Shown one piece after another: positions 25,939 to 54,976 of a stretch of DNA of 64,000 nucleotides (position 1 is the stretch's first letter; every line of letters starts with the position of its first letter). Below the pieces are notes generated by a model that saw nothing but the letters and a program-made list of their open reading frames with translations, ran no database searches and was not told the DNA's origin. Position numbers and translations under genes: made by a program. Location: positions 118,551 to 182,550 of the IMG/VR virus record IMGVR_UViG_3300023184_000028; one strand, given 5' to 3'. The DNA comes from a virus. Taxonomy: Duplodnaviria; Heunggongvirae; Uroviricota; Caudoviricetes.

Positions 25939-26538
25939 ATGGCTAAAGAAATAGAAAATAACCCAAAAGTTTTGGCATTGGATATATCCACCAAAACCAT
26001 CGGAATCGCTTTGTTTGATATAACAACCAGAGAATTATTGGAATTAACTCACGTATCTCCTGTCCCCAAGCCAAAGAGGGATAATAAGATGGAGGAGTTA
26101 TTGATTAAAGCGGAGATGGTTCGTTCCAAGATTGATAATTACAAAAACTTAAATGTTACGGAAGTAGTTATTGAGGAGCCATTGTTGGGTTCTAATAATA
26201 TTTATACAATCCAAACGTTATTAAGATTTAATACTTTAGTATTTAAGGACATTTACGAACAATTGGGAATTGTTCCTGAATTTATTTCTACATACAATGC
26301 ACGTAAGTTTGCATTTCCCCATCTTGTCCAACCAAATGACAAGGGTAAATTTGTTTTGTTTGGAGGTTTTCCAAGAGACATAGACAAAAAAACTATAATA
26401 TGGGAGTTGGTTGCCAAGAGGGAACCACAAATCACTTGGAACTACACCAAGAATAATACGCTTAAGAAAGAGAATTTTGACTCGTCTGATGCTTATACTG
26501 CTGGTCTTGGGTATATGAGGATGAAACAGATTTGGTAA
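25939..26538 (+). CDS. RuvC-like Holliday junction resolvase (RNase H fold)
   Basis: VLALDISTKTIGIALFD (cf RuvC ILGIDPG..TG). VVIEEPLL (catalytic Glu). DSSDAYTAGLGY (C-terminal Asp pair). Confidence 0.6.
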   Translation: MAKEIENNPKVLALDISTKTIGIALFDITTRELLELTHVSPVPKPKRDNKMEELLIKAEMVRSKIDNYKNLNVTEVVIEEPLLGSNNIYTIQTLLRFNTLVFKDIYEQLGIVPEFISTYNARKFAFPHLVQPNDKGKFVLFGGFPRDIDKKTIIWELVAKREPQITWNYTKNNTLKKENFDSSDAYTAGLGYMRMKQIW

Positions 26539-26561
26539 TCCATTAATTTTTATTATATTTG
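26531..26561 (+). promoter_or_regulatory. Bacteroidetes sigma-A type promoter (-33 TTTG, 19 nt spacer, -7 TATATTTG) for primase; only 4 nt before the ATG
   Basis: TTTGGtaatccattaatttttatTATATTTGtcctATG. Confidence 0.5.
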
Positions 26562-26565
26562 TCCT

Positions 26566-27465
26566 ATGGACGAAGAAATTGAGGTAATCACGGAATTGCT
26601 GGTTGATGTATTGGGGGAACCCAAGAAATCATATAAGGGAAGTACGCAGGTATCTTTCAACTGTCCCGTATGTGATGAAGGGAAGGGTAAGGGTAATTTT
26701 GAGGTTAATATTGAGAAATCTGTTTATCATTGTTGGAGTTGTGGAGATAGTGAGGGAACACATGGGCCTTTAGGTAAATTCTTTGATAAGTTTGGAACCA
26801 AGAAACAGAAGAAGTTATATCTATTGGTTCGTCCCGAAGAGAGACAGGAGAAGAGGTCGTTTATACCCAAGGTTAAATTACCTGATGGGTTCACCAAGAT
26901 ATTAGATTGTAATAAGATTTATCCCCCATATAGGGAAGGTATTAACTATCTCAAGAGTAGGGGCATAACTGATGAGATGTGTGAGAAGTATGGTATTGGG
27001 TTGACTAGTATTGGTAGTTTTGCTGGTAGGGTTGTTATTCCGTCATATGATAAGGGTGGGGACTTAAATTATTTTGTTGCTCGTTCTTGGAATCCGAGGG
27101 CTAAACAAAAGTATATGAATCCTAAGGCTGAGAAGGATAAGATTATCTTTAATGAGAACTTGATTGATTGGGAGAAGGACATTTATGTTTGTGAGGGAAT
27201 GTTTGATGCGATATTTTTGCCTAATGCCGTTCCAATGCTTGGTAAACATTTATCTGAGTTATTATTCACGACGATATATGAAAAGGCTAAGGGTGATGTG
27301 ATTATATGTTTGGATGGGGATGCGTATGAGAGTAGTATTAAATTATATCACACATTAAATGGGGGTGTTCTTTATAATAGAATAAAGATGGTTAGATTGC
27401 CGGTGGATAAGGATGTGTGTGATTTGAGGGGTGAAATAAACGATTATTATATAACAATTAAATAA
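26566..27465 (+). CDS. DNA primase (zinc ribbon + Toprim; DnaG/T4 gp61-like)
   Basis: CPVCDEG...HCWSCG zinc ribbon; EGMFDAIF and LDGDAYE Toprim acidic motifs. Confidence 0.7.
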   Translation: MDEEIEVITELLVDVLGEPKKSYKGSTQVSFNCPVCDEGKGKGNFEVNIEKSVYHCWSCGDSEGTHGPLGKFFDKFGTKKQKKLYLLVRPEERQEKRSFIPKVKLPDGFTKILDCNKIYPPYREGINYLKSRGITDEMCEKYGIGLTSIGSFAGRVVIPSYDKGGDLNYFVARSWNPRAKQKYMNPKAEKDKIIFNENLIDWEKDIYVCEGMFDAIFLPNAVPMLGKHLSELLFTTIYEKAKGDVIICLDGDAYESSIKLYHTLNGGVLYNRIKMVRLPVDKDVCDLRGEINDYYITIK

Positions 27466-27468
27466 AAT

Positions 27469-27681
27469 ATGAAAGAAACAAAATTAGGTTCAGACATTAC
27501 ACCTGATGAAAAGGTGTGTTATAACTGCAAACATCTCGCTTGGATGATTGGAATAGGACAGGGGTTAAGATGTATTCATCCAAAGAAGGGGAACTCGGAG
27601 ATGATACCGAGTAGCAAACACACATGCGAATTATTTGAGAAAAATCCAAAATTGGAAAAACCCGATAAAAATGAATTATGA
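27469..27681 (+). CDS. Small Cys-containing protein (70 aa)
   Basis: ORF; CYNC...C..C. Confidence 0.45.
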   Translation: MKETKLGSDITPDEKVCYNCKHLAWMIGIGQGLRCIHPKKGNSEMIPSSKHTCELFEKNPKLEKPDKNEL

Positions 27682-27965
27682 AAAAGTTATTTACAATAAT
27701 TTTATTATTGTTCTGCATCAATACGAATGCTCAAATTTTAGAAGTTAAAACACAAAGTGTAACTCAAGAATACATTAACTTTTATAATAAAAAGTTGGAT
27801 TCTTTATCTAAACTATATAATAAAAAAGTTTTTGGATATCAAAGGACTATTACCGTTGGGGAAAAAGTTAGGGAAACATGTGTTATTTTTTACACGTCAA
27901 ATAAAGAAACGAGAGACAGTATAGTTTGGGTTAAAGAACTCATTGTTGAAAAAAAACCAAAATAA
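27678..27965 (+). CDS. Small secreted protein (95 aa; signal peptide MKKLFTIILLLFCINTNAQ)
   Basis: ORF with N-terminal hydrophobic signal-like segment. Confidence 0.5.
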   Translation: MKKLFTIILLLFCINTNAQILEVKTQSVTQEYINFYNKKLDSLSKLYNKKVFGYQRTITVGEKVRETCVIFYTSNKETRDSIVWVKELIVEKKPK

Positions 27966-27966
27966 T

Positions 27967-27997
27967 TTTGGCGGTATTGAAATTAGTTTTATATTTG
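27967..27997 (+). promoter_or_regulatory. Bacteroidetes-type promoter (-33 TTTG / -7 TATATTTG)
   Basis: TTTTGGCGG...19 nt...TATATTTG; ATG 20 nt downstream. Confidence 0.5.
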
Positions 27998-28016
27998 TGT
28001 TCTAAAACAAAAATAT

Positions 28017-28181
28017 ATGGCAGGAGTTATCAATTTTGACATACCAACTTATCAAAGATTAAAAAAAGAATATCAACGCTCTGTTGATAATAAAGTTGAG
28101 GTATTTGTGTTTGAGGGACATGAGTTATTGACTGAATATGCCAAGTATTTGATTGAGTATTTAACCACGAAATTTAATTAA
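28017..28181 (+). CDS. Small hypothetical protein (54 aa)
   Basis: ORF found by eye, 20 nt downstream of a consensus promoter; below ORF-track cutoff. Confidence 0.35.
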   Translation: MAGVINFDIPTYQRLKKEYQRSVDNKVEVFVFEGHELLTEYAKYLIEYLTTKFN

Positions 28182-28287
28182 TAAGATATGAACAGACAGA
28201 CAAACGAAAGAACGACATATCCACTTTTTATTGGTGCGATTGTTATTTTTATTTTATTGGTTGTATTAATGAAATTAACTTAAAATT

Positions 28288-28713
28288 ATGAAAGGGACAT
28301 TAAATAAAACAGAACAAGGGTGGGTGGTAAGATATGGAGATATGCAGTTTCTTCCATTACATCCCGAATATCAAACTATTTTACCATTAGATTTAGATTT
28401 GGAAGGTAAAGAAATTGAATTTGATTGGTGCGTTATAGTAGAGCATTATACTGGTAAAGGTATAGAATATGCTAAACTAATAGATAAAAAAGTAATATGT
28501 GAGTATAGTGGTTTACCATCAGTGACATCATATACTACATCCGAATATCCTGAACTTGAAGGAACATTAGAGTTATGTAATGATAAGGTGTGGGATGATA
28601 TATATGAAGAATATTCTATGGAACAATATCCGGCATTTGGTGGGCCATTTACGGACTCAATATCATTTATAGATTGGTTAAAATTATACTATAAATCACC
28701 CGAAAAAAAATAA
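28288..28713 (+). CDS. Hypothetical protein (141 aa)
   Basis: ORF. Confidence 0.55.
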   Translation: MKGTLNKTEQGWVVRYGDMQFLPLHPEYQTILPLDLDLEGKEIEFDWCVIVEHYTGKGIEYAKLIDKKVICEYSGLPSVTSYTTSEYPELEGTLELCNDKVWDDIYEEYSMEQYPAFGGPFTDSISFIDWLKLYYKSPEKK

Positions 28714-28724
28714 TTAAAAAAAGT

Positions 28725-28756
28725 TTTGGCTGGTAAATAATTACCCTTTATCTTTG
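28725..28756 (+). promoter_or_regulatory. Bacteroidetes-type promoter (-33 TTTG / -7 TATCTTTG), copy A of a duplicated 65-bp cassette
   Basis: TTTTGGCTGG...20 nt...TATCTTTGTATTCACAAAACAATCAAAGATATG. Confidence 0.55.
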
Positions 28757-28778
28757 TATTCACAAAACAATCAAAGAT

Positions 28779-28955
28779 ATGTCCAAAACAATTTCATTCA
28801 AAAAAGGAACAACAGTAAGAGTTTTAGATGGTGAACATTCAGGACAATTGGCAGTGGTTATTAGAAGTACTAAATTTCATGTGGTTTGTCAATCACCCAA
28901 TCAACTTTATCAATGGTGTTACCTTAAAACTCAACTTGAGAAAGTGGAAAGTTAA
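28779..28955 (+). CDS. Small hypothetical protein (58 aa, MSKTISFKKGTTVRVLDGEHSGQLAVV...)
   Basis: ORF found by eye, 23 nt downstream of a consensus promoter. Overlaps ORF-track ORF 28828 in another frame. Confidence 0.5.
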   Translation: MSKTISFKKGTTVRVLDGEHSGQLAVVIRSTKFHVVCQSPNQLYQWCYLKTQLEKVES

Positions 28956-28962
28956 AAAAACT

Positions 28963-28994
28963 TTTGGCAGAACCAAAATAACCCCTTATCTTTG
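28963..28994 (+). promoter_or_regulatory. Bacteroidetes-type promoter, copy B of the duplicated cassette
   Basis: TTTTGGCAG...20 nt...TATCTTTGTATTCACAAAACAATCAAATATATG. Confidence 0.55.
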
Positions 28995-29016
28995 TATTCA
29001 CAAAACAATCAAATAT

Positions 29017-29493
29017 ATGACAACAACTACCACCACCCCAACAACAACAGTAATTAACCTTACAACTGGCACAATGGCTGGCGACGTATTCTACGGAACG
29101 TACAATACAATCGTTAAAGGTAAATCTCAAAAAGTAATGGTTTCCAACCACCTTAAAGAAAACAAGGAGTATGAGTTCCGTATTGCTAACAAATGTCAGG
29201 CAGGATTCATCAATATCTCTGATTGGACTACAACACCGAAAGAAATGATTTCAGGTTTTGGTAAAAACACTTTGGTTAATATCCAAGTGAAACATACCTA
29301 CGATAACGGAAAAATTACTTGGATGAATGTATTCACAACCAAAGGTGGCAAATGGTATTCTATTGATAAAGGATTTTTGGATGTGTTGACTGTGGGTGAT
29401 ATGAGACAATCATTTCCTGATATGTGTGATATGGAATTGTGGGGTAGAATGGGTGCTAATACTTGGGCGGACAAGGCGTTCGTTCAGAACTAA
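29017..29493 (+). CDS. Hypothetical protein (158 aa; poly-Thr N-terminus MTTTTTPTTT)
   Basis: ATG 23 nt downstream of the second copy of the consensus promoter. The upstream part of the ORF-track ORF (28828-29016) contains the promoter, so it is taken as non-coding. Confidence 0.6.
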   Translation: MTTTTTTPTTTVINLTTGTMAGDVFYGTYNTIVKGKSQKVMVSNHLKENKEYEFRIANKCQAGFINISDWTTTPKEMISGFGKNTLVNIQVKHTYDNGKITWMNVFTTKGGKWYSIDKGFLDVLTVGDMRQSFPDMCDMELWGRMGANTWADKAFVQN

Positions 29494-29499
29494 AAATAT

Positions 29500-29605
29500 A
29501 GTCAGGTGGCGGAATAGAGCAGACGCTAAAATAACGAGTGGACAGCGTGCCATTGGGGAAGAGCCATAAAAGTTACGCATACAGGTTCAAATCCTGTCCT
29601 GACTA
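29500..29605 (+). ncRNA. tRNA-like structured RNA: perfect 7-bp acceptor stem plus canonical T-arm (ACAGG-TTCAAAT-CCTGT), no anticodon arm, 106 nt
   Basis: AGTCAGG (29500-06) pairs with CCTGACT (29598-604). GGTTCAAATCC T-loop consensus. Local GC-rich island. No 5-bp/7-nt anticodon stem-loop can be formed in the 74-nt interior. Confidence 0.4.
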
Positions 29606-29620
29606 CAAAAAATAAAAGAT

Positions 29621-29710
29621 ATGAAGATAGTATTAATAATAATCGGAGTGATGTTAATTGTTAAATTAGCCTTTTTTATGGCTGATGTTCACGGAAAAAG
29701 TCCTAAATAA
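29621..29710 (+). CDS. Small hydrophobic peptide (29 aa, MKIVLIIIGVMLIVKLAFFMADVHGKSPK), type I toxin-like / small membrane peptide
   Basis: ATG 15 nt after the tRNA-like element; paralog of the 29968 peptide. Confidence 0.4.
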   Translation: MKIVLIIIGVMLIVKLAFFMADVHGKSPK

Positions 29711-29717
29711 AAAAATT

Positions 29718-29819
29718 ATGAGAAATTTTGATAAAGAATTGAAAGATTGGAAATCTGATATGATAGGGTTTTTATTGGCAGGTTTCATCTTGGGAGTTTG
29801 TTTTGGAATATTAATATAG
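29718..29819 (+). CDS. Small membrane peptide (33 aa, MRNFDKELKDWKSDMIGFLLAGFILGVCFGILI)
   Basis: Its stop codon TAG overlaps the first 2 nt of the second tRNA-like element. Confidence 0.35.
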   Translation: MRNFDKELKDWKSDMIGFLLAGFILGVCFGILI

Positions 29820-29951
29820 TCAGGTGGGCGTAATGAGGGAGTGGTTCCCGAATCCCCAAGATTGGCGGTTACCGACACTAGGGTGGCCGTTGCGTCGTAA
29901 GGTTGTCTAATCCGTCTTGAACGGTATCCGGTTCGAGTCCGACCCTGGCTA
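29818..29951 (+). ncRNA. Second tRNA-like structured RNA (same 5' AGTCAGGTGG, GGTTCGAGTCC T-loop, acceptor 3' strand CCTGGCT), 134 nt, no anticodon arm
   Basis: Shares ends with the element at 29500. 7-bp acceptor pairing with one G-U. T-stem only 3 bp. Interior differs and contains a second GGTTCCCGAATCC segment. Confidence 0.3.
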
Positions 29952-29967
29952 CAAAAAATAAAAAATT

Positions 29968-30063
29968 ATGAATATAGTATTAATCATTTTAGTTGTTATG
30001 ATTTTTTTAACTTTTTTTGGGGTTAAAATAACAATACACGACAAAGACAAAAAAAACATATAA
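29968..30063 (+). CDS. Small hydrophobic peptide (31 aa, MNIVLIILVVMIFLTFFGVKITIHDKDKKNI)
   Basis: Paralog of the 29621 peptide, in the same position relative to the tRNA-like element (spacer CAAAAAATAAAA). Confidence 0.4.
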   Translation: MNIVLIILVVMIFLTFFGVKITIHDKDKKNI

Positions 30064-30064
30064 T

Positions 30065-30406
30065 ATGAAAGAAAAACAAGTAATACTGGCAAAGACAGAG
30101 TACGATGCAATGGAAGCCGAATTGACTGACTTGAGAACCATAGTCAACAGCAGAACCATACTCCAAATAGTAGAAGAGGCATCTTATTGGTTCAGGGTTC
30201 GCTATGCGGCAAGTGGCACACGAATCAAATACATATTAGGAACTGAAAGTGATGAGGATAAAATGAAAGTATTATCAGAACATATTGGGGACTTATACAA
30301 TAAGTTAGCGAAGATGGAAGAAGATTTGGGTATAAGGCAGGATGAAATCAACAGATTAAAGAAACTGACGTGGTATCAAAAAATATTCAGTAGAAAAAAC
30401 ATATAA
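30065..30406 (+). CDS. Hypothetical coiled-coil protein (113 aa)
   Basis: ORF; start context AAAAAACATATAATATG. Confidence 0.55.
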   Translation: MKEKQVILAKTEYDAMEAELTDLRTIVNSRTILQIVEEASYWFRVRYAASGTRIKYILGTESDEDKMKVLSEHIGDLYNKLAKMEEDLGIRQDEINRLKKLTWYQKIFSRKNI

Positions 30407-30407
30407 T

Positions 30408-30608
30408 ATGGAAATAGGAGATTGGATTGAATATCCCGAACACGATAAGGCTTGGATTGGGTGGGAAACGACAAGCTCATATCTAATCTACAGGATTAAA
30501 AATGTCCTCAATGAGGAAGGTAAAACCTCGCGTGGTTGGTTATTTAGTCAATTAGAATTAGAGTGGATATTAAAAACTGATTTTAATTATAAAACAAAAA
30601 ACATATAA
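30408..30608 (+). CDS. Hypothetical protein (66 aa)
   Basis: ORF; identical start context AAAAAACATATAATATG. Confidence 0.5.
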   Translation: MEIGDWIEYPEHDKAWIGWETTSSYLIYRIKNVLNEEGKTSRGWLFSQLELEWILKTDFNYKTKNI

Positions 30609-30609
30609 T

Positions 30610-30894
30610 ATGGAACAAAAATTAACACCAACAGAAAGAGTAATTGCAATTGTGTTATTCACAATCGTATTCCTTGCATTGTTGTCGGGACTTGTGAGTT
30701 GTAGCCAACCGGTACTTAATAAGAATGAATATGTTATAGTAGATACGTTAAATGTGTCGCGTAATGGATTTGGAAAGGTTCTTGAATATGAAGTAATTGT
30801 TGAGATTGATAGTTCTTATCATTATGGGACTATTAACGGAGATGGAGAACTAACGCATATTAATATAAAAAAGATTAAAAAAGAAATAAAATAA
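30610..30894 (+). CDS. Small membrane protein (94 aa, one TM)
   Basis: ORF; identical start context; TM segment VIAIVLFTIVFLALLSGLV. Confidence 0.55.
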   Translation: MEQKLTPTERVIAIVLFTIVFLALLSGLVSCSQPVLNKNEYVIVDTLNVSRNGFGKVLEYEVIVEIDSSYHYGTINGDGELTHINIKKIKKEIK

Positions 30895-30896
30895 AT

Positions 30897-30927
30897 TTTG
30901 GCAGAACCAAAATTATCTTTATCTTTG
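30897..30927 (+). promoter_or_regulatory. Bacteroidetes-type promoter (-33 TTTG / -7 TATCTTTG)
   Basis: TTTTGGCAGAACCAAAAT...TATCTTTG; ATG 18 nt downstream. Confidence 0.55.
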
Positions 30928-30944
30928 TAATCTAAATTAAAAAA

Positions 30945-31319
30945 ATGGAAAAAGAATTTATACCATATCAACAAGCATTAGATTTAAAAGAATTAGGATT
31001 TGATGGTACAAATTGTATGAGATTTTATAATGCTGAACTTTCATTAGAAAACACTTTTTTATATTCTGGAAATGTGGGCGCACCCCTATACCAACAGGCT
31101 TTCCGTTGGTTTAGAGAGAAGTATAATTTAGAATATCAAATAATAAAATCAACAAATGGTAATTATTCTGCGGTTATTCATTTGAATACTCAAGAATACT
31201 TAAATAAAATATCAACATTACCTAATGCTTGTGTTGATGAGGTTGTGGATTGTTATTCATACGAAGAAGCAGAACTTGCTTGTTTAAATAAATTAATAGA
31301 AATAGTAAAAAACAAATAA
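30945..31319 (+). CDS. Hypothetical protein (124 aa)
   Basis: ORF 18 nt downstream of a consensus promoter. Confidence 0.6.
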   Translation: MEKEFIPYQQALDLKELGFDGTNCMRFYNAELSLENTFLYSGNVGAPLYQQAFRWFREKYNLEYQIIKSTNGNYSAVIHLNTQEYLNKISTLPNACVDEVVDCYSYEEAELACLNKLIEIVKNK

Positions 31320-31322
31320 CAT

Positions 31323-31523
31323 ATGAAACTCGCATTAAAATTTATCTTATTACTTTTGCACCTTATAATATCAGGAGTTATAATGTATTATATTGCCGAT
31401 TATATTTCTCAACCTGTCAGCCTTGGATTTGTAATTGCCGGTGGTTTGATTTACTTGGGGATTATGATTACAATTAGCTTACACACCTATCAATTTTTGT
31501 CATCAATTAAAAACCAAATATAG
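31323..31523 (+). CDS. Small 2-TM membrane protein (66 aa), possible partner of the downstream SPFH protein
   Basis: Two hydrophobic helices; immediately upstream of the SPFH gene. Confidence 0.5.
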   Translation: MKLALKFILLLLHLIISGVIMYYIADYISQPVSLGFVIAGGLIYLGIMITISLHTYQFLSSIKNQI

Positions 31524-31526
31524 ATT

Positions 31527-32480: not shown

Positions 32481-32511
32481 TAATCCCGTAAGGGTGGAGC
32501 CACGGCAAAGA

Positions 32512-32536
32512 CCTCATCTTAGGATGGGGTTTTTTA
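32512..32536 (+). terminator. Rho-independent terminator after the SPFH gene
   Basis: CCTCATC-ttag-GATGGGG stem (one G-U) followed by TTTTTT. Confidence 0.55.
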
Positions 32537-32558: not shown

Positions 32559-32888
32559 ATGAAGATTTTAATAACGGAGAATCAGTTAAGGAAAGTTCAG
32601 TTTAAGTATTTGGATTACTTATTTGATGGGATGTATGAGATTAAATCCGCAAAATATCCTGATTCCAAAATTTGGAAAAAAGATGATGAAGTGGTGTTAG
32701 AATGGTCAACAACAGGTCAGTTGAGAGTTATACATTCAATTTGGAGTAATATTTCCAATATGTTTTCTTTGGAATATGATGAAACTGAACAACTTATAAA
32801 AGATTGGGCGGAACAACATTTAGAAGTAGAAAGAATTACTTCTTTGTATAGAACACAATTTTATCATTCCAGGTGGAACAACGTTTAA
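32559..32888 (+). CDS. Hypothetical protein (109 aa); N-terminus MKILITENQLRKV paralogous to the next gene
   Basis: ORF. Confidence 0.5.
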   Translation: MKILITENQLRKVQFKYLDYLFDGMYEIKSAKYPDSKIWKKDDEVVLEWSTTGQLRVIHSIWSNISNMFSLEYDETEQLIKDWAEQHLEVERITSLYRTQFYHSRWNNV

Positions 32889-32899: not shown

Positions 32900-33127
32900 A
32901 TGAAGATTTTAATAACAGAAGAACAATTAAAAAAGATTAAAGGTGAGATGGAAGAGGCGTTGGGAGTTCCCGAAGGAATACTTGAAGCCGGTGAAGAGAT
33001 ATATGATTTGATACTCCAAGAGTTGGATAATTTTAATGGTGATATTGACGACCTTAATAAAGACGGGTTTGAGATAGATAAAGAATTTACAGTAGGAGGG
33101 CACACCTTTAATAAGATAACCGTTTAG
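32900..33127 (+). CDS. Hypothetical acidic protein (75 aa); N-terminus MKILITEEQLKKI
   Basis: ORF. Confidence 0.45.
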   Translation: MKILITEEQLKKIKGEMEEALGVPEGILEAGEEIYDLILQELDNFNGDIDDLNKDGFEIDKEFTVGGHTFNKITV

Positions 33128-33148: not shown

Positions 33149-34018
33149 ATGGCAAAAAATGCTGATATGGTTGGGATGAGTTCGGAGAATGATTCAGAAC
33201 TTGACGATAGATTGGTGTTCAGGAGCATTAGAGACCCACAAGAAATTGTTATAGGGTTCAAGTTCTTTATTGGTTCAGGAAAGGGAATTGAGGTTATTAA
33301 AAACTATCTTAATAAACATAGAAACGAAGACATACCATCACTATCTCACGAAATAAAACATGCGTTTAGAGATGTTAAACAAAAGACGGAACCGATGCAC
33401 CAAAGGGTTGGATATGGTGCAATACAACAACAAAAAGAGTTTTTTGGTTTTATTCCTGAACTTAATGAATTTTTATTTAACTCATATTATATCCATGCAC
33501 TTGAGAATGTTGTAAGACCAACAGAACTTGCCGCAGAAATGAGAATTAATAATGTGTCAAGAAAAGAGTTCTTAAAGTTTTTCTTAAACTCCGAAATGAT
33601 TAAAAGATTAAAAGAAATACAAAATTTTAGTTATGAGGACTTTATAGAAAAAATGCATTCAACCGAAAACGTCAGTAAGATAAAAAAAATGTTGGATGCT
33701 GTTGGAGTTGATTATGAAGGTGAAGATGATTATGAGGTTGTTGATAAATTTTTGAAGATGTTTATTGTTAGTTTAACAAATAAAAAAAATGAGTTAATGA
33801 ATAGGTTTTTAACATCTAACGCAATGGAAGCTATATTAGGGTTAAGAGGTGTTAAAGATAAATTTTTCAAGAAGTATGTTGCTCAAACAACAAAATATGG
33901 TTATGACTACGACTCCTTCTTTGAGAATGAAGAGAACAATTTCCACCGAGTCGCCACGATGATGTTTAAGAAACTCGCAAAACTATACGCAATGGCTAAA
34001 AACACCCCTCCTGAATAG
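33149..34018 (+). CDS. Hypothetical protein (289 aa)
   Basis: ORF followed by a strong terminator. Confidence 0.6.
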   Translation: MAKNADMVGMSSENDSELDDRLVFRSIRDPQEIVIGFKFFIGSGKGIEVIKNYLNKHRNEDIPSLSHEIKHAFRDVKQKTEPMHQRVGYGAIQQQKEFFGFIPELNEFLFNSYYIHALENVVRPTELAAEMRINNVSRKEFLKFFLNSEMIKRLKEIQNFSYEDFIEKMHSTENVSKIKKMLDAVGVDYEGEDDYEVVDKFLKMFIVSLTNKKNELMNRFLTSNAMEAILGLRGVKDKFFKKYVAQTTKYGYDYDSFFENEENNFHRVATMMFKKLAKLYAMAKNTPPE

Positions 34019-34030
34019 AGGGGTTTTTTA
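34005..34030 (+). terminator. Rho-independent terminator
   Basis: CCCCTC-ctgaata-GAGGGG followed by TTTTTTATTTT; the stop codon lies in the loop. Confidence 0.7.
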
Positions 34031-34042: not shown

Positions 34043-34074
34043 TTTGGCTGATAATTTATTATTTCTTATTTTTG
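34043..34074 (+). promoter_or_regulatory. Bacteroidetes-type promoter (-33 TTTG / -7 TATTTTTG)
   Basis: TATTTGGctg...20 nt...TATTTTTG; located just after the terminator 34005-34030. Confidence 0.45.
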
Positions 34075-34094: not shown

Positions 34095-34340
34095 ATGACA
34101 CCAAAAGAAAAAGCGAGAGAATTAGTACATATATTTTACATTTCCTTACCAAACAATGGTGGATTTACAGGGTTAAATAACGTTAATAGTAGATGGAATG
34201 AGGGAAAAAATTGTGCGTTGATTGCGGTAAATGTCATGTTAAAAAACATGATGTTCTATGAGGAACAATTTGATACGGGAAAACCTGAACATCATAGAAC
34301 ATATTGGGTAGAAGTTAAAACAGAAATTGAAAAAATATGA
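34095..34340 (+). CDS. Hypothetical protein (81 aa; start revised to ATG 34095)
   Basis: The consensus promoter at 34043-34074 lies inside the ORF-track N-terminus (TTG 34044). First ATG is 20 nt after the -7 box. Confidence 0.5.
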   Translation: MTPKEKARELVHIFYISLPNNGGFTGLNNVNSRWNEGKNCALIAVNVMLKNMMFYEEQFDTGKPEHHRTYWVEVKTEIEKI

Positions 34341-41299: not shown

Positions 41300-41358
41300 T
41301 TTTAAAGTCTAAAATAATTTAATTATCTTCGTTCTTTAATTAACAAAAATAAAAAAAA

Positions 41359-41908: not shown

Positions 41909-42709
41909 ATGAAAGAAAAATCAGAAGGAATTCCTATAAATCAGGAAGAGATTTACTCGTATCTTAAAGATATCCGTAAAATTAAAGTGATGACCCCCGA
42001 AAGAGAGAGGGACTTGTCAAAGATGATGTCATCAGGAAGATTGGATGGAAACCAAAAAGTATCAATAGAGCAAGAACTCATTGAGGGTAATCTAAGGTTT
42101 GTAATCACAGTAGCAAAACAATATCAAAATCAAGGATTAGATTTAGCTGATTTAATCGCTGAAGGTAATTTTGGTTTAATTAAAGCAATCAAAAGTTTTG
42201 ATTGGAGTAAAAACTTAAGATTTATTTCTTATGCTGTGTGGTGGGTTAGACAATCTATCTTACAATCATTAAATGAACATGCGAGAACAATCCGACTTCC
42301 CGTAAATATTGTTCAGGAGTTACATAAAGAGAAGAAAGCGGTTGAAAAGGGGATTTCTGAATTATCTGATAAATTTGCCACATTACCGTCAATAATACAA
42401 ATTGATAACACAATTAATGAAGATGGAGATACTCTTATGGACGTGGTTGTTAATCCAAATGCGTTAATGCCTGATGAATCCTTTAATGGGAAAGATTTGT
42501 TAAAGGAAAAACTAATTGATGTGTTAGGTGTGTTGGATGATAGAGAACGAGTTATCATTGAGGATTATTTCGGATTAACGGGTAATACAAGAACATTGGA
42601 AGACATCGGAACCGACTTTGACTTAACTAAGGAGAGGGTAAGACAAATTAAAGAGAAGGCGTTACGAAAGTTACGGAACGAAGGGTCAGTACTATTTGAC
42701 TATATCTAA
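41909..42709 (+). CDS. Sigma-70 family RNA polymerase sigma factor (regions 2 and 4 present)
   Basis: DLIAEGNFGLIKAIKSFDWSKNLRFISYAVWWVRQSI (region 2.1-2.4). TLEDIGTDFDLTKERVRQIKEKALRKLR (region 4.2 HTH). Confidence 0.9.
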   Translation: MKEKSEGIPINQEEIYSYLKDIRKIKVMTPERERDLSKMMSSGRLDGNQKVSIEQELIEGNLRFVITVAKQYQNQGLDLADLIAEGNFGLIKAIKSFDWSKNLRFISYAVWWVRQSILQSLNEHARTIRLPVNIVQELHKEKKAVEKGISELSDKFATLPSIIQIDNTINEDGDTLMDVVVNPNALMPDESFNGKDLLKEKLIDVLGVLDDRERVIIEDYFGLTGNTRTLEDIGTDFDLTKERVRQIKEKALRKLRNEGSVLFDYI

Positions 42710-42716
42710 ATTACAT

Positions 42717-42750
42717 AAATGGACTATTTATAATAGTCCATTTATTTTTT
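42717..42750 (+). terminator. Rho-independent terminator after the sigma factor gene
   Basis: AAATGGACTA-tttataa-TAGTCCATTT (10-bp perfect stem) followed by ATTTTTT. Confidence 0.7.
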
Positions 42751-48057: not shown

Positions 48058-48063
48058 AATTGG

Positions 48064-48507: not shown

Positions 48508-48583
48508 TTAACTAGTAATTTATTTACTTGTCAAATGTAAATTTTATTATTATGTTTAATAAATAAAATAAAAAATTAAAAAA

Positions 48584-48959: not shown

Positions 48960-49394
48960 ATGAATCTATATAAAGAATTAATAAACATATTCCCTTATCT
49001 GGTTTCAATCAGAAAGTTAGAGAATTATGTGTCAATAGATATTGAATTCCCAAAGACTTGGAAGTATCCTAAAAAATATGTGGATGAAAAAACTATTATA
49101 GAACAGAAGGCTCAAAAAGAGGACGTTAGATTTTTTTCATTCGCAACGGCATTTGATGAGACTTCATTGAATGTTCTTTTCACAAATATAAATGGTATTG
49201 TTAAATACAATAAGGAAAGAGAAGAAAAAGAGTTTTTACTTGATGAGAAAATGAAACAGTTACGAAGTTTTTTTGAACAAAATAAATTAGACGATTTAAA
49301 ATCGTTAGAATTTAATATTAAATCAGGGTTTAATCTAAAATTAGAAGATGATGGACAATCAGAAGATATTGGATTGGTATCAGAAGGAGCTTGA
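48960..49394 (+). CDS. Hypothetical protein (144 aa)
   Basis: ORF. Confidence 0.55.
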   Translation: MNLYKELINIFPYLVSIRKLENYVSIDIEFPKTWKYPKKYVDEKTIIEQKAQKEDVRFFSFATAFDETSLNVLFTNINGIVKYNKEREEKEFLLDEKMKQLRSFFEQNKLDDLKSLEFNIKSGFNLKLEDDGQSEDIGLVSEGA

Positions 49395-49539
49395 AAAGGA
49401 TAGTCTCCAAATACAAAATGAAAAAAATAAATTTGCCAACTCAATTAAAAAATTAAAAAAACAGGATATTTTTGTACCTGAAAAAGTTGAAAAACTAACC
49501 ATATGGAAGAGAATCAAGAAGGTTTTAATGGGTATTTAG
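49348..49539 (+). CDS. Small hypothetical protein (63 aa; start uncertain)
   Basis: ORF overlapping the previous gene by 47 nt. Confidence 0.3.
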   Translation: MMDNQKILDWYQKELEKDSLQIQNEKNKFANSIKKLKKQDIFVPEKVEKLTIWKRIKKVLMGI

Positions 49540-49724
49540 AAAGATTGGCATTAATTTGTGAAGGAATTGATATATTACATGCCGGTAAAAAGGCGGTTGT
49601 TTTTCAGTTAAATAGGGAAGAGTTTCTCCAAGTTAGGGATTCCTTAAAAAGTGTTGGAGACGATAAAACTGAGTTTAAGATTGATATATCAGGTATTGAA
49701 TTTATTTATCTTTTAAGTGAGTAG
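49503..49724 (+). CDS. Small hypothetical protein (73 aa)
   Basis: ORF. Confidence 0.4.
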   Translation: MEENQEGFNGYLERLALICEGIDILHAGKKAVVFQLNREEFLQVRDSLKSVGDDKTEFKIDISGIEFIYLLSE

Positions 49725-50349
49725 TTGATGTTCTGTATAACATACTTTTATTATATCCCAAATTAGTTAATATCTCATAGAGATATTTTTTTTGCTCTCT
49801 ACTACTGTCTTTTACAATCAAACAATTACTTTTATTATTTAACATCATATATTTTTCCAAATTAATTAAAAATCTATCGGCATCGTATATTGATTTTAAT
49901 GAAAATAAATTATAGATATCTTCATCTTGAATTATAATTTTATTATTTAGTTTGGAAACAAGTTTTAATGAGTTGCCCCTCAAGTAGGTATTAATTAATT
50001 TTTCTGAAGATATTTTTTGTTTTTTGGATATATGGAATACTTTTTCAGGTATATTGTATTTTTCTATTTTAATTATTGCATAGTTTGGGTCATTTAATTG
50101 TACCGGTATATTCCTGCCCATTTCATCTGTTCTATAAATTGGAAATAATTTTTCGGAGGTTTTTTCAATTAGTGCTATTTCATAATTAACATCTCTGCCG
50201 TTTTCTGTCTGAACATCAAAAACTACTTCATTACTTTCTTTTACTTTTGAGTTAAAGAAGGGCAATGCATTTTTATAAGTTTTATAATTCTTTATTATTT
50301 TGTATCTTTCTTTATTCTTAAATAAAATTATTGTATAATTGTTATTCAT
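49702..50349 (-). CDS. Hypothetical protein (215 aa), divergent from and abutting dnaJ
   Basis: Long minus-strand ORF, rare by chance at this AT content. Its start-codon complement (50347-50349) directly abuts the dnaJ ATG (50350). Confidence 0.6.
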   Translation of the reverse strand: MNNNYTIILFKNKERYKIIKNYKTYKNALPFFNSKVKESNEVVFDVQTENGRDVNYEIALIEKTSEKLFPIYRTDEMGRNIPVQLNDPNYAIIKIEKYNIPEKVFHISKKQKISSEKLINTYLRGNSLKLVSKLNNKIIIQDEDIYNLFSLKSIYDADRFLINLEKYMMLNNKSNCLIVKDSSREQKKYLYEILTNLGYNKSMLYRTSTTHLKDK

Positions 50350-51309
50350 ATGAAGAATTATTACGAAATTTTAGGGGTAAGTAAAGACGCAAGTCAAGAA
50401 GATATTAAAAAGGCCTATAGAAAGTTGGCCTTACAACACCATCCTGATAAAGGGGGTGATGAATCTTTGTTTAAAGAAATTAGTGTTGCATACGAGAATG
50501 TGGGTGATGAGAATAAAAGGAGGGAGTATAACCATAAGTTAGATAATCCCATGGCTGGTATGTTTGGCGGAGGTAGAAATCCTTTTGGTGATGGAAATAT
50601 TGATGATATATTAAATCAAATGTTTAGTGGAGGATTTGGTGGAAGACAACAGCAACAACAAAGACGAACTCCCGAGAAACTGGTTGATGTTGAACTTAGT
50701 GTGGTTGATTCGTTCAAGGGTGTTGATAAGGAAATTACTTATTCTAGAAAGACAGATTGTAATGGATGTGGTGGAAGTGGTGGACAAAGGTCGGGTTGCG
50801 TGACTTGTGGAGGACAAGGATTTGTGATGCAGAGAGCAGGAACCGGAATGTTTACACAAGTAATTAGAACAGTGTGTAACCAATGTAATGGTAATGGTTA
50901 TGTATTGATTAACAAATGTAACACATGTTTTGGCTCAGGAGGTAAGGATATAGTTGAGAAAATACGAGTTACGATACCAAGAGGAGTTGAAAGTGGACAA
51001 ATGCTAAGACTCTCTCAAAAGGGTGATTTTATTCAAGGGATGATGGGTGATTTAATATTAAGAATTAATTTGGTTAATAAAGATGGGTTTGAGAAGAATG
51101 GTAATGATTTAATATATAATGCGTTCTTCACTTTGGATGACCTAAAGAATAATGATTTTGAGATACCACATCCTGATGGTAATGTTTCGGTTAAATTTCC
51201 TAAAGACTTTAATACTCAAATACCTTTAAGATTGAGAGCAGAAGGTTTTACGACACATATGACTGGTGATTTGTACGTTAAGATGAATGTTAAATATACA
51301 AGAAGTTAG
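50350..51309 (+). CDS. dnaJ: DnaJ-like co-chaperone (J domain + four CxxCxGxG zinc-finger repeats + C-terminal domain)
   Basis: DYYEILGVSKDASQEDIKKAYRKLALQHHPDK (HPD motif). CNGCGGSG, CVTCGGQG, CNQCNGNG, CNTCFGSG. Confidence 0.9.
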   Translation: MKNYYEILGVSKDASQEDIKKAYRKLALQHHPDKGGDESLFKEISVAYENVGDENKRREYNHKLDNPMAGMFGGGRNPFGDGNIDDILNQMFSGGFGGRQQQQQRRTPEKLVDVELSVVDSFKGVDKEITYSRKTDCNGCGGSGGQRSGCVTCGGQGFVMQRAGTGMFTQVIRTVCNQCNGNGYVLINKCNTCFGSGGKDIVEKIRVTIPRGVESGQMLRLSQKGDFIQGMMGDLILRINLVNKDGFEKNGNDLIYNAFFTLDDLKNNDFEIPHPDGNVSVKFPKDFNTQIPLRLRAEGFTTHMTGDLYVKMNVKYTRS

Positions 51310-51518
51310 AACAAACTTATAATGTATTTGACAATTTGTACTTGACCTATGATTGCAAGTAATAATACGTATAGGGATAAATAAATCCACCAAGAGAATT
51401 TTTTCTTTGCTCGTTTGCAAAAATTACAACCTTTTTTTTGTTCCATAATCTTAAATATAATCATCAATAATATTTTATAAATAATTTGCCTTTCTGATTT
51501 TTTTTATTATAATTAGGT

Positions 51519-52358
51519 ATGTTAAGTTATATTGGAGGTAAATCAAAAATTGGTAAATGGATTGTGGATTTGTATCCACAAGATATGGAAGTGTATTTAG
51601 AGACATTTGGAGGTATGTTCTGGTGTTTTTATAATATGGACTTATCCAAGTACCCAAATCTAAAGAAAGTCGTTTATAATGACTTTAACCCACTAAATTA
51701 TAATCTCTTTAAGTGTGTTCAGAATCCATCTGAATTACAAAGAGCGTTAGATGGTATAGAAGTTCAACAATTGGGGGTGTCCCAAGCTTCTGATTTATTA
51801 AAGGAGCAGTTTACCACATTCCAAACAGAAGTATTTGGTTCAGGATTTACTACAAACGTACCCGATTATTATACTGCAGCAAAGTATGTTTATGTATTAA
51901 CACAGGTGTTTAGTGGTAGTAAGCCCGAGACATCATCATTTATTGATTTGAAGGGCAAGTATCGTTCCAAGTATCTATCGTTTAGAGATAAGTTAAGTAA
52001 ACCTGATTGGATAGAACACTTCCTTAAAATAACTGATGTTGAGAATATGGATTTTGGGGATGTTATTGCCAAATATGATTCTGAAAAAACGTATATCTAT
52101 TTAGACCCCCCATATTGGAAGACCGAGAATTACTATTCCAACCATGATTTTGATAGGGAAGACCACCAAAGGTTAGCTAATGAGTTAAAACATGTTAAGG
52201 GTAAATTTAGTTTATCGTATTATGATTTTCCTTTATTACATGATTGGTTCCCTGATAATATCTATAGGTGGGAACGTAAATCTTTTGCTAAAGCGGCTGC
52301 GGCTAAAAAAGGTGTAAAACAAAATTTGGCGGAAGAGTTGTTAATTATGAATTATTAA
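51519..52358 (+). CDS. dam: Dam-family N6-adenine DNA methyltransferase
   Basis: SYIGGKSKIGKWI (cf Dam KWAGGKYPLL), ETFGGMF (AdoMet-binding FxGxG-like), YLDPPYW (DPPY catalytic motif). Confidence 0.88.
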   Translation: MLSYIGGKSKIGKWIVDLYPQDMEVYLETFGGMFWCFYNMDLSKYPNLKKVVYNDFNPLNYNLFKCVQNPSELQRALDGIEVQQLGVSQASDLLKEQFTTFQTEVFGSGFTTNVPDYYTAAKYVYVLTQVFSGSKPETSSFIDLKGKYRSKYLSFRDKLSKPDWIEHFLKITDVENMDFGDVIAKYDSEKTYIYLDPPYWKTENYYSNHDFDREDHQRLANELKHVKGKFSLSYYDFPLLHDWFPDNIYRWERKSFAKAAAAKKGVKQNLAEELLIMNY

Positions 52359-52405
52359 TGTATTTTTGCTTCGTTAAGATATTTATAAGAGTAAAAAATA
52401 TATAA

Positions 52406-53797
52406 ATGAAAGTATTAAACATAATTAAAAAAGTTATTTTAGAACAATCAAGATTTGAGGTCTTGATGGATAAGTATACAACGATTAAGAAAAATAAAGA
52501 AGGTAAGAAGGTTAACCCTTTATTAGATATCACCAAATTTGCTCAAATTATATTTGCTGACCCAACGACAAAAAAACCTGCAGATTTTGATACAACAAAT
52601 TTAAGTCCTGAGAATTTATCTAAAGTTCAGCCAGGGGCATATACTAATTGGTTGTTAAAGTGTTATGAGAATCCCCAATTAGACCCTGATACTGCTGAAA
52701 TGACAGAACCGGGTACCGCATCTTATAAGAAAGCAATTGCTGATGCTAGAGGGTTGTTTATGGAAGATTTGTTCAAGGCGACAGATGATTTAAAAAAGTT
52801 TACAAAATACAAACAATATTTCCCTCTTGATAAAAGGGATATCAATAAGTTCAGTAGTCCTGATGAGTTATTTAGATTCTTAAATGCGTTCCAACTTCCT
52901 GAAAAGAAAAAGAAGGAGTTGGAAAAAAAGGATTTAAAGAAAGAGATTAGGAAGGAAAGAAAAGGATATAGTCATCCTGGTGCTACTGTAGAGATAGAAA
53001 CGCCTACTTGGACTGTGGTTAAGATTTCTGACTTGGGTCCTAAAGGTCAAGAGGCTGCAAGTTGGTATGGTGGTTATTATGATTATAATAACGGAGAATC
53101 AAGATGGTGTACTTCACCTCCGGATTCTTCATACTATAAGGGATATGCTAAAGATGGTCCACTATACGTGATACTTGCAAATGATGATAAAGGATTAGTT
53201 GGTGGTAGAACAGGATTACCTCAAGAGAGATTCCAATTCCATTTCCCTTCTAATCAGTTTATGGATAGATTAGACCATAGAATAGAATTGATTGAGTTTT
53301 TAAATGGTCAAGGTTCTGAATTAAAAGAATACTTCAAACCGGAGTTTGCTAAAGGATTAACAACTTCAGGTGGTAAAAAAGTAGAGATAGAGTATCCTAA
53401 TAGTTCTGCTGCTAAGTTCATTGCTTTATATGGTTTTGATGAGTTCTTCGGTAGTTTACCTGATGATATTACAAACCTATTGTTTAATAACAAATCAAAC
53501 GAGAATATTGCATTGGATGTACCGCCAACATTGGGTAGATTTACAAACTTGGAAGCGTTGTTGTTGATGAACTGTGTAAAATCATTACCAGATGAGATTG
53601 GCAATCTTAAAAGATTATCGTTCTTAGCGTTACCAAACAATCCATCATTAAAACACATACCTGATTCAGTATTAGGATTACCTAATTTGTCATTTATGAA
53701 TCTTAATGGTACAAAACCAAAATTAACACCTAAATTTATTGAGGTGTTTGGTGAGGAAGGTCAGGGAGGAACCGGATTTTTTAGTAAGAAAAAATAA
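52406..53797 (+). CDS. Hypothetical protein with C-terminal leucine-rich repeats (463 aa)
   Basis: FTNLEALLLMNCVKSLPDEIGNLKRLSFLALPNNPSLKHIPDSVLGLPNLSFMNLNG. Confidence 0.65.
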   Translation: MKVLNIIKKVILEQSRFEVLMDKYTTIKKNKEGKKVNPLLDITKFAQIIFADPTTKKPADFDTTNLSPENLSKVQPGAYTNWLLKCYENPQLDPDTAEMTEPGTASYKKAIADARGLFMEDLFKATDDLKKFTKYKQYFPLDKRDINKFSSPDELFRFLNAFQLPEKKKKELEKKDLKKEIRKERKGYSHPGATVEIETPTWTVVKISDLGPKGQEAASWYGGYYDYNNGESRWCTSPPDSSYYKGYAKDGPLYVILANDDKGLVGGRTGLPQERFQFHFPSNQFMDRLDHRIELIEFLNGQGSELKEYFKPEFAKGLTTSGGKKVEIEYPNSSAAKFIALYGFDEFFGSLPDDITNLLFNNKSNENIALDVPPTLGRFTNLEALLLMNCVKSLPDEIGNLKRLSFLALPNNPSLKHIPDSVLGLPNLSFMNLNGTKPKLTPKFIEVFGEEGQGGTGFFSKKK

Positions 53798-53803
53798 TAA
53801 AAT

Positions 53804-54094
53804 ATGAAAAGTATGAGCAACGTAGATATTGATATCTATATTAGTCAGATAATTAGTTTTTTTGAGAAAAACCCCAATGAGTTATTTATCTTGATTGGGG
53901 ATTTGGATAAGGACTATTTCTTTAAGATGATTAAAGAGGTTGCTCAGGAAAACCACGATAAGGGTGAGGATGTAAACTTAACCAGAAGTCAGATGATAGA
54001 TATTGTGGTTAAAATGAATAAAGAGATTAAGGAACAGAGGGTGGTTAATGTTCCCTTCATGGAAACCCCCTATGGAGATATTTGTTTAAATTAA
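53804..54094 (+). CDS. Hypothetical protein (96 aa)
   Basis: ORF. Confidence 0.5.
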   Translation: MKSMSNVDIDIYISQIISFFEKNPNELFILIGDLDKDYFFKMIKEVAQENHDKGEDVNLTRSQMIDIVVKMNKEIKEQRVVNVPFMETPYGDICLN

Positions 54095-54105
54095 TTAAAA
54101 ATATT

Positions 54106-54136
54106 TTTGGTAGTTCGGAATTATTGTTTATCTTTG
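54106..54136 (+). promoter_or_regulatory. Bacteroidetes-type promoter (-33 TTTG / -7 TATCTTTG) for the DUF932-like gene
   Basis: TTTTTGGTAG...19 nt...TATCTTTG; ATG 27 nt downstream. Confidence 0.55.
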
Positions 54137-54162
54137 TGTTCTAATCACAAAAACAATAACAT

Positions 54163-54921
54163 ATGTCAACAATCATTTCACTTGAGAACTTGAAACAAAC
54201 AGTTCCATCAGTATTCGCAACCGAAGCTTCTAACAGCAGAACCAGTAAGTATGTATTTGTCCCTACCACGGAAATCTTGGAGAACTTCCAAAAGGAAGGT
54301 TGGGAAGTGTCTTCGGCAAGACAAATGGGAAAAAGTATGTATTCAACCCATGAAGTTCGTTTACGTAATGGTCAGATGCCAAAAGTCGGAGATTGTTTCT
54401 TGGAGGCAATTATCCGTAATTCCCACAACGGATTAAGTTCGTTAAGGATTACCGCTGGTCTCCACCGCTTAATTTGTAGCAATGGTCTTACGGTTCCTGA
54501 ATCAGTTAGTCAGTCGTTCGCAGTTCGTCATTCTTATCTTGACTATGATATGGTTAAGAGTTTTACAGACGAATTTGCCAACAATCTGACTACAATTGAG
54601 AATTCTATTGGTAAGATGAGTTCAAGGGTTCTTACTGAAGGGGAACAAGTTGGTTATGTTAAATCTGCGGCACACGTTAGATGGAAAGAAGGTAAAATGC
54701 CCGAGTCAATTAAAATTGAGGACATCCTTAATCCACTTCGTGATGGTGACAGAGGGAATGACATGTGGACTACTTTTAACGTGGTTCAAGAGAAGTTCAC
54801 AAGGGGTGGTATCGGTTATAAGGCCGGAAAAAGACACACCTCTATGAGAGAACTGAAGAACATTGTCAGTACTAATAAAATTAATACTGAACTTTGGGAG
54901 TTGGCTGAGAGTTATTGTTAA
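54163..54921 (+). CDS. DUF932-like (phage/plasmid-like protein family) protein
   Basis: Core HEVRLRNG...[27 protein letters not shown] resembles the DUF932 signature from memory. Own promoter (54106-54136) and terminator (54931-54957). Confidence 0.5.
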
Positions 54922-54930
54922 TCTTAAATT

Positions 54931-54957
54931 TGGGGGGACTTTTCCCCCCATTTTTTC
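54931..54957 (+). terminator. Rho-independent terminator after the DUF932-like gene
   Basis: TGGGGGGA-cttt-TCCCCCCA followed by TTTTTT; the only G/C homopolymer stem in the window. Confidence 0.8.
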
Positions 54958-54968
54958 TAAAATTTTAT

Positions 54969-54976
54969 TATCTTTG
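54969..54976 (+). promoter_or_regulatory. -7 TATCTTTG box (no clear -33) 5 nt upstream of ATG 54981
   Basis: ttatTATCTTTGtcatATG immediately after the terminator hairpin. Confidence 0.35.

Follow-up and report, generated by a model that had tools for sequence, protein, structure and literature searches.

Bacteroidota promoters consist of a TTTG at -33 and a TAnnTTTG at -7, as reported for Bacteroides fragilis and Flavobacterium by Bayley 2000 and Vingadassalom 2005 (as cited in PMC6847099 and PMC12641261). In Flavobacterium johnsoniae the -7 element reads TAHHTTTG, with T at -12, A at -11, T at -8, -7 and -6 and G at -5, and transcription starts 5 nucleotides (nt) past this G (PMC6847099). 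AT-rich motifs are present near -18 and -28, the -33 element is weak, and the predicted transcripts possess leaders longer than 10 nt in 87% and of 10 nt or less in 13% of cases (PMC6847099). Here we describe eight sites of this type (class I, P1 to P8), a second motif, TATTTAT(A/T) (class II), and a phage-encoded sigma factor in a 64,000-nt stretch of an uncultured phage of the Caudoviricetes (IMG/VR record IMGVR_UViG_3300023184_000028, positions 118,551 to 182,550), referred to as the window. With a probability of about 75%, we consider the eight sites to be functional promoters of the Bacteroidota primary-sigma type, which would head early and replication units of this phage.

Several other described systems are relevant for comparison. 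SPO1 encodes a phage sigma cascade composed of gp28 and gp33/34, the late promoter consensus of T4 is TATAAATA, and the cI mRNA of lambda is leaderless. Phage sigma factors also include gp36 of phiEco32 and 7-11 (PMC8948821), and gp55 of T4 works with a late promoter that lacks a -35 element (PMC6024815). Leaderless mRNAs are described as common in Actinobacteria (PMC4633059, as cited in PMC6847099). For T4-type phages, promoter-early stem-loop (PeSL) cassettes have been reported (Arbiol 2010, PMC2839356; Comeau 2014, PMC4122927). Our literature search returned nothing relevant on class I-like promoters or sigma factors in Flavobacterium phages, nor on TATTTAT as a motif of this kind. Host-type promoters on a phage are a known kind of element, and what would be added here are predicted leaderless starts, gene exchange through promoter cassettes, a phage copy of the Bacteroidota primary sigma (sigma-ABfr) and a second motif.

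The window and its relatives

The window has a G+C content of about 31%, and nearly all of its genes are located on the plus strand. Its structural side (1-26 kb) is occupied by very large open reading frames (ORFs) with few family matches, and from 25.9 kb onwards there are genes for a RuvC-like resolvase, a primase, an exonuclease, a phosphoesterase, an SbcC-like ATPase, a DnaJ homologue, a Dam-type methylase and a DUF932 protein. A simple gene map leaves about 2,550 nt of the window (4%) as non-coding DNA. We collected 19 related IMG/VR sequences via the primase, and 15 non-redundant relatives were used together with the window for family statistics. Three closer relatives were added by other routes: L001, whose primase is 93% identical to that of the window, L020, with 72-86% nucleotide identity to the window, and L022, with 94% nucleotide identity across 51.6-60 kb of the window. 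A megablast search of window positions 26-46 kb against cultured phages gave no match, and the best protein matches of the window among phages, Chryseobacterium phage MA9V-3 and Flavobacterium phage immuto, are distant.

Eight class I sites

Seven full sites were found at exactly the coordinates of the original prediction, all on the plus strand, and the eighth, a -7 box only, at 54969-54976. Predicted starts are given 5 nt after the final G of each box; 5' ends had been expected about 7 nt past the -7 boxes, and the G-at-minus-5 rule (PMC6847099) corrects this offset. P1 (26531-26561, +) is composed of TTTG at 26531-26534, a 19-nt spacer and TATATTTG at 26554-26561, with a predicted start at 26566, the first position of the primase ATG; its -33 TTTG falls within the 3'-terminal codons of the RuvC-like gene. 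P2 (27967-27997, +) is TTTG-N19-TATATTTG with a predicted start at 28002 and precedes a 54-amino-acid (aa) gene (28017-28181). P3 (28725-28756, +) and P4 (28963-28994, +) are both TTTG-N20-TATCTTTG, with predicted starts at 28761 and 28999 and first genes at 28779-28955 (58 aa) and 29017-29493 (158 aa). P5 (30897-30927, +; TTTG-N19-TATCTTTG; predicted start 30932) is followed by a 124-aa gene (30945-31319), and P6 (34043-34074, +; TTTG-N20-TATTTTTG; predicted start 34079) by an 81-aa gene (34095-34340), downstream of which there are exonuclease and recombination genes. P7 (54106-54136, +; TTTG-N19-TATCTTTG; predicted start 54141) precedes the DUF932 gene (54163-54921), and P8 (+) consists of TATCTTTG, with a predicted start at 54981 on the ATG of a 563-aa gene.

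The spacers of P1-P7 are 19, 19, 20, 20, 19, 20 and 19 nt, just as the original prediction had stated, and five of the -7 boxes are indeed identical (TATCTTTG), the rest being TATATTTG twice and TATTTTTG once. From the final G to the ATG there are 4, 19, 22, 22, 17, 20, 26 and 4 nt for P1-P8; the placement close upstream of an ATG therefore stands, with a range of 4-26 nt instead of the 4-27 nt first given. Alignment of the sites revealed conservation beyond the consensus, namely TTTGG at -33, a T right after the final G and upstream A-tracts.

Terminator-like hairpins accompany some of the sites. A hairpin with a T run, resembling an intrinsic terminator, lies directly upstream of P6 (34004-34024, +), with another terminator at 32507-32534 further upstream. 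A strong hairpin of the form GGGGGG-loop-CCCCCC followed by six T (54931-54950, +) ends the DUF932 unit and occupies the -33 position of P8, where no TTTG is found 18-21 nt upstream of the -7 box. The hairpin before P7 is weak, and P1-P5 possess A-tracts in place of a hairpin.

Further sites were absent from the original prediction. A degenerate class I site (41300-41331, +; TTTT-N20-TATCTTCG) is located upstream of an operon encoding a DUF6576 protein and the sigma factor, and lone -7 boxes are present at 52361-52368 and 59637-59644. The -33 TTTG of P7 is at the same time the end of another TAnnTTTG box (54102-54109, TATTTTTG), as is that of P2 (27963-27970, TAATTTTG). The box at 54102-54109 is itself preceded, at 17 nt, by a TTTG, and this arrangement may be a tandem promoter.

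Match to the Bacteroidota consensus

The original prediction recognized in these sites the consensus of the host housekeeping sigma factor. Our comparison bears this out: the sites fit the Bacteroidota pattern TTTG/TANNTTTG, all eight boxes also fit the stricter TAHHTTTG with no G at the variable positions, and the -33 TTTG is at the consensus distance in seven of the eight. Like sigma-ABfr promoters, they combine both boxes with a 19-20 nt spacer, an AT-rich stretch near -18, short leaders without a Shine-Dalgarno sequence, and an intergenic placement oriented towards the gene. They differ in lying on a phage genome, in a far stricter -33 element (TTTGG in seven of eight, whereas -33 is barely visible in the F. 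johnsoniae set), in the T that invariably follows the final G, and in two sites situated just 4 nt from the ATG, unlike F. johnsoniae leaders. A Shine-Dalgarno signal is absent among 396 start codons of the window and relatives, where G makes up 7-12% from -20 to -1, as in Bacteroidota. We also considered a sigma-70-type reading and rejected it, since E. coli-type TTGACA/TATAAT sites are not enriched (63 vs 55±8 and 114 vs 107±11).

The host would belong to Bacteroidota and probably to the freshwater Flavobacteriales; no CRISPR or prophage link to a host emerged, and the sites would support the phylum without recourse to homology with cultured phages. The unrelated Flavobacteriia phage MA9V-3 (L110+L111, PV245944.1) has CTGTTGTCT as its top upstream word, with six of seven genome copies located upstream of genes, which suggests a different, phage-specific promoter in that phage.

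Statistical support and placement

A motif search of the kind suggested in the original prediction, run over the window, gave 10 matches to TTTG-N18-21-TANNTTTG. Dinucleotide shuffles (n=100) contain 3.72±1.87 matches with a maximum of 9, so that none of them reaches the observed count. Three further full matches beside P1-P7 (27188+, 28772- and 51853-) are inside or antisense to coding regions and equal the expected background. The -7 box alone shows no enrichment across the window (120 vs 108±11 in shuffles). Meanwhile, the non-coding 4% of the window holds seven of the eight plus-strand full matches (binomial probability about 1e-9) and 12 of the 46 plus-strand TAHHTTTG boxes. The non-random signal is the -33/-7 combination together with its location and not the -7 box by itself.

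As claimed before, the structural block is free of these sites: there are zero full matches and zero intergenic -7 boxes in positions 1-26,000. The same preference is echoed in the 15 relatives, where 3 class I sites lie upstream of the primase and 21 at or after it. In the family, including the window, 38 -7 boxes were observed in 11.8 kb of oriented upstream DNA, an approximately 5-fold enrichment; mononucleotide shuffles of the upstream regions contain 7.3±2.7 boxes with a maximum of 16 (n=500), the reverse complement of the box occurs 14 times and permuted words 4-6 times. Gaps between box and ATG cluster at 4 nt and in the range of 14-30 nt.

Conservation of individual promoters

We compared orthologous promoters in L001, L020 and L022 and observed that all substitutions are outside the -33 TTTG and the fixed positions of the -7 box. 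P2 is identical in L001, with substitutions in the leader downstream. P4 retains TTTGG, the -7 box and the 5' untranslated region (UTR) in L020, with a diverged spacer. P6 forms a conserved island in L020, having one spacer change and a -7 box changed to TATCTTTG; the sequences on either side of it and the gene that follows have diverged. P7 has just two changes in L022, both in the spacer, and the hairpin at P8 retains its stem in this relative while the loop changes from ACTTTT to ATAATA. At P1, L001 carries an insert of about 875 nt and the -7 box is lost.

Corrected gene starts and predicted leaderless transcripts

Three gene starts were corrected through the promoter sites, and the relatives or family alignments agree with each of these proposals. 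The gene behind P4 starts at 29017 and not at 28828, for L001 lacks 28790-28951, the DNA of the extension, and its ORF begins at the equivalent ATG. At P6 the start is 34095 instead of 34044, as the 81-aa product aligns over residues 1-81 to positions 1-75 of the 75-position phrog_21441; the alternative TTG start at 34044 belongs to the -33 TTTG of P6. The third gene starts at 54981 rather than 54915, because the loop change in the L022 hairpin creates an in-frame TAA in the longer ORF.

With the final G of P1 at 26561 and that of P8 at 54976, G at -5 places the start on the A of the ATG (26566 and 54981), and the mRNAs of the primase and of the 563-aa gene are hence predicted to be leaderless. 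The 4-nt gap is the commonest single spacing in the family, with seven cases, and a -7 box with this gap is also found before the primase in two relatives (L011 and L012). These transcripts would resemble known leaderless mRNAs in starting on the A of the AUG, and the same geometry appears at several class I and many class II sites of the relatives. In contrast to the known examples, the phage case is predicted from promoter geometry alone, and the frequency of leaderless geometry in the phage is unusually high for Bacteroidota, where most leaders exceed 10 nt.

Promoter cassettes and gene exchange

Some of the promoters are copies of one another. P3 and P4 belong to repeat family D1 (76 nt, 83% identity; P3 copy 28714-28789), with near-identical -7 boxes and 5' UTRs and a single mismatch just before the ATG, and P2 and P5 form a second repeat pair (family D2). 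In L001 there is a single P3/P4 hybrid, composed of the upstream half of P3 and the downstream side of P4, and the 58-aa gene (28779-28955) is missing. At P5 the window and L001 are the same as far as TATCTTTGTA and then differ: the window continues with the 124-aa gene, and L001 instead with a P3/P4-type UTR joined to the orthologue of the gene at 31323. Breakpoints between the two genomes are observed at P1, P3/P4 and P5; the 32507-32534 terminator and the tRNA-like region described below hold further junctions.

This organization is similar to the PeSLs of T4-type phages in that short repeated cassettes with a strong host-type early promoter are clustered among small genes of unknown function, and in that the indel or replacement differences of close relatives end in the cassettes. 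Unlike in PeSLs, a stem-loop terminator is present at two to three of the eight sites and not in every cassette, the consensus is that of Bacteroidota instead of sigma-70, and the phage is unrelated. Exchange of small early genes through promoter homology, as in T4-type coliphages, would then also operate in an unrelated phage with another promoter grammar.

Two other differences were noticed. L022 contains about 670 nt (5418-6090) that are missing from the window at 57026/57028, between two small genes and without a class I promoter. Right after the 32507-32534 terminator there are tandem paralogous small genes with near-identical starts, of which the window has two (32559-32888 and 32900-33127) and L001 has four (17996-19344).

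A second motif, TATTTAT(A/T)

In the 15 relatives, with the window left out, no other 7-mer is as strongly enriched upstream of genes as TATTTAT. Upstream DNA totalling 8.4 kb accounts for 53 of its 199 copies (p = 2.5e-49), against 11.6±3.3 in shuffles of this DNA and 18 for the reverse complement. No accompanying upstream element was found in the upstream regions, that is, class II has no -33. Most often the motif begins 12-13 nt before the ATG, and in a second group 19-28 nt before it; a distance of 12 nt equals the leaderless geometry of class I (8-nt box plus 4 nt). Among 164 upstream regions, 50 contain TATTTAT, 22 a class I site and only 2 both. The two classes are also distributed differently: 27 class II sites are before the primase and 14 after, versus 21 of 24 class I sites at or after it (Fisher p = 3e-5), and the median downstream gene is 336 aa for class II versus 161 aa for class I.

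In the window, class II motifs start at 485, 9510, 18171, 23685, 32535, 32547, 46376, 52380 and 59657 on the plus strand, and at 59342, 51483 and 17128 on the minus strand, before three minus-strand genes; copies also occur in relatives L002-L020. The plus-strand genes behind them begin at 506, 9533, 18182, 23697, 32559, 46400, 52406 and 59669; for example, the motif at 18171-18177 (+) lies 11 nt before the ATG at 18182. The ORF listed from a TTG at 23691 probably begins at the ATG at 23697, 12 nt past the start of its motif (23685), and the ORF behind the motif at 485 (506-5791, +) encodes 1,761 aa without a PHROG match. MA9V-3, which has no such sigma gene, was used as a control: its upstream DNA lacks TATTTAT and has almost no class I sites either, a result from which it follows only that Flavobacteriia phages do not all share TATTTAT.

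We infer that class II comprises late or middle promoters, for which the phage sigma factor is the most likely reader. It is less likely a translation signal, given that its distances to the ATG are bimodal in the manner of class I.

The phage-encoded sigma factor

The gene at 41909-42709 (+) encodes a 266-aa sigma-70-family factor with regions 1.2, 2 and 4, RpoD/RpoS-like (phrog_351 at 1.6e-51; Pfam Sigma70_r2, r4 and r1_2), and is followed by a terminator-like hairpin (42715-42745, +) that is kept in relatives. The protein is present in more than 120 metagenomic clusters at 71% identity or above, on contigs of up to 320 kb, and none of its homologues in cultured phages exceeds 38% identity. 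It is most similar to Bacteroidota rpoD products, the best (44%) being from freshwater Flavobacteriia and Crocinitomicaceae genome bins. The closest relatives among cellular proteins are sigmas of approximately 286-289 aa that start with MRQLKITK; for one of about 287 aa (P0218), the 80 best genomic matches, with taxonomy taken from the genome scan, are all Bacteroidota except two bins titled 'bacterium' and one contig that is probably mis-binned. The phage factor and these ~287-aa sigmas have FISYAVWW(V/I)RQSILQ, VAKQYQNQ and ERVRQIKEKA in common, where ordinary SigA has FSTYATWWIRQAITRA and RERIRQIEAKA at the corresponding positions.

Compared with Bacteroidota sigmas, the phage factor has DWSKNLR instead of DETKGFK in region 2.3 and lacks about 24 residues of region 3, whereas its region 2.4 (FISYAVWWVRQSILQ) is of the same type and its region 4.2 is near-identical. 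A search of solved structures found none for a Bacteroidota sigma-A that would allow contacts to be assigned to individual bases.

The DUF6576 and sigma operon is preceded by a perfect TTTG-N19-TATCTTTG in three relatives (L103, L002 and L003), and two more (L107/L108) carry TATCTTTA at the position of this promoter. The perfect site argues that the host sigma must read class I first.

This arrangement is similar to the cascades of SPO1, phiEco32 and T4, sharing host-type early promoters, a phage factor of the sigma-70 family and a single-element motif before structural genes. It is distinguished from them by a near-full-length, host-type primary sigma (regions 1.2, 2 and 4) in place of a diverged minimal factor, by a second motif that retains the geometry and first two bases of the host -7 box, and by a pairing of sigma and motif that is deduced here from sequence.

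Proposed transcription programme and alternative explanations

In the proposed mechanism, host RNA polymerase with host sigma-A would bind both boxes of class I and start 5 nt past the final G, which would make the units early and host-polymerase-dependent as originally proposed, with timing and sigma dependence deduced from the sites. Six sites would yield short A-rich leaders of about 12-21 nt without a Shine-Dalgarno sequence, the primase and 563-aa transcripts would begin on the A of the AUG, and the hairpins at 34004-34024 and 54931-54950 would close transcription units. The promoters, as mutual copies in some cases including the 5' UTR, could serve as homology patches for the gain, loss or swap of small early genes between related phages. 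In relatives, one class I promoter would drive the operon with the phage sigma, and structural and other genes would use the -33-less TATTTAT(A/T), with the same geometry, read later and most likely with the phage sigma. Tentatively, and at somewhat less than even odds, we propose a two-step programme, in which host sigma-A reads TTTG/TAHHTTTG and the phage factor, a shortened sigma-ABfr paralogue with altered region 2.3, reads TATTTAT(A/T) to give transcripts mostly starting at AUG.

Overall, consensus fit, intergenic gene-oriented placement and conservation support the reading of class I as Bacteroidota sigma-A-type promoters, and the original observation is confirmed. Chance matches in AT-rich intergenic DNA might be suspected from the lack of window-wide enrichment of the -7 box and from the three full matches that are evidently background, but this explanation is already refuted, and we attach almost no weight to it: no shuffle reaches the observed count, seven of eight plus-strand matches fall into 4% of the sequence, upstream-region shuffles average 7.3 boxes against 38 observed, and the sites are conserved in relatives. 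It is also highly improbable that the 45-76-nt repeats serve chiefly for recombination, as boundaries or as sites bound by a phage regulator, with the promoter likeness secondary. The near-identical copies do reach past both boxes, as in D1, and the breakpoints of gene gain and loss coincide with the repeats; yet distant relatives keep only the boxes and their spacing while spacer and flanks change, orientation and distance to the start codon are fixed, and a role as recombination substrate is compatible with promoter function, as in T4-type PeSLs (PMC2839356).

A rival of more substance, which we still regard as unlikely, holds that class I sites are real promoters read mainly by the holoenzyme of the phage sigma (41909-42709), making their units middle-class and dependent on a phage factor. 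Region 2.4 and region 4.2 (ERVRQIKEKA) are host-like, so that the determinants for the 'TA' of the -7 box and for -33 look alike in both factors, and the -33 TTTGG of the phage is unusually strict compared with the weak -33 of F. johnsoniae. Against this, the sigma operon of relatives stands behind a perfect class I site, so that this class must be usable before any phage sigma has been made; the phage sigma has another motif class, with different downstream bases, at its disposal; and it differs from host sigmas in region 2.3 and is without part of region 3. Several points nevertheless weigh against the host sigma-A reading that we prefer. By virtue of its region 2.4 and its near-identical region 4.2 the phage sigma could also read class I sites, and the window's own sigma-operon site is degenerate. 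P1 is not kept in the closest relative, L001, and an upstream hairpin occurs at just two to three of the eight sites. The host phylum rests on the motif itself, the missing Shine-Dalgarno signal, the affinity of the sigma and distant Chryseobacterium and Flavobacterium phage matches, and promoter activity, start sites and timing are all predictions.

The sites provide a concrete transcription map for an uncultured, widespread phage group, with eight predicted starts (two of them leaderless), terminators and unit boundaries. If true, the two-step programme would be the first sigma switch described for a phage of Bacteroidota, and leaderless late mRNAs would be widespread in it. The phage sigma with its partner motif would lend itself to studies of how sigma-ABfr recognizes the -7 element, and could supply strong compact promoters for genetic work in Flavobacterium and Bacteroides.

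Other features of the window

The phage DnaJ homologue (50350-51309, +) is full-length, with a J domain, a zinc-finger domain and a C-terminal domain. A tRNA scan and an Rfam scan of the window at gathering threshold found nothing, and ARAGORN detected neither of two tRNA-like elements at 29500-29605 and 29817-29953 (+); in a focused search only, the former scored 31.5 bits with the Rfam tRNA model. The two elements have a common acceptor stem (AGTCAGG/CCTGACT), G-U compensated in the second, and a common T-arm, and both hold inserts of about 45-70 nt. Upon folding, their stability was not above that of shuffles. A small hydrophobic ORF comes after each of them (MKIVLIIIGVM and MNIVLIILVVM, respectively), and the region is another point of divergence between the window and L001.

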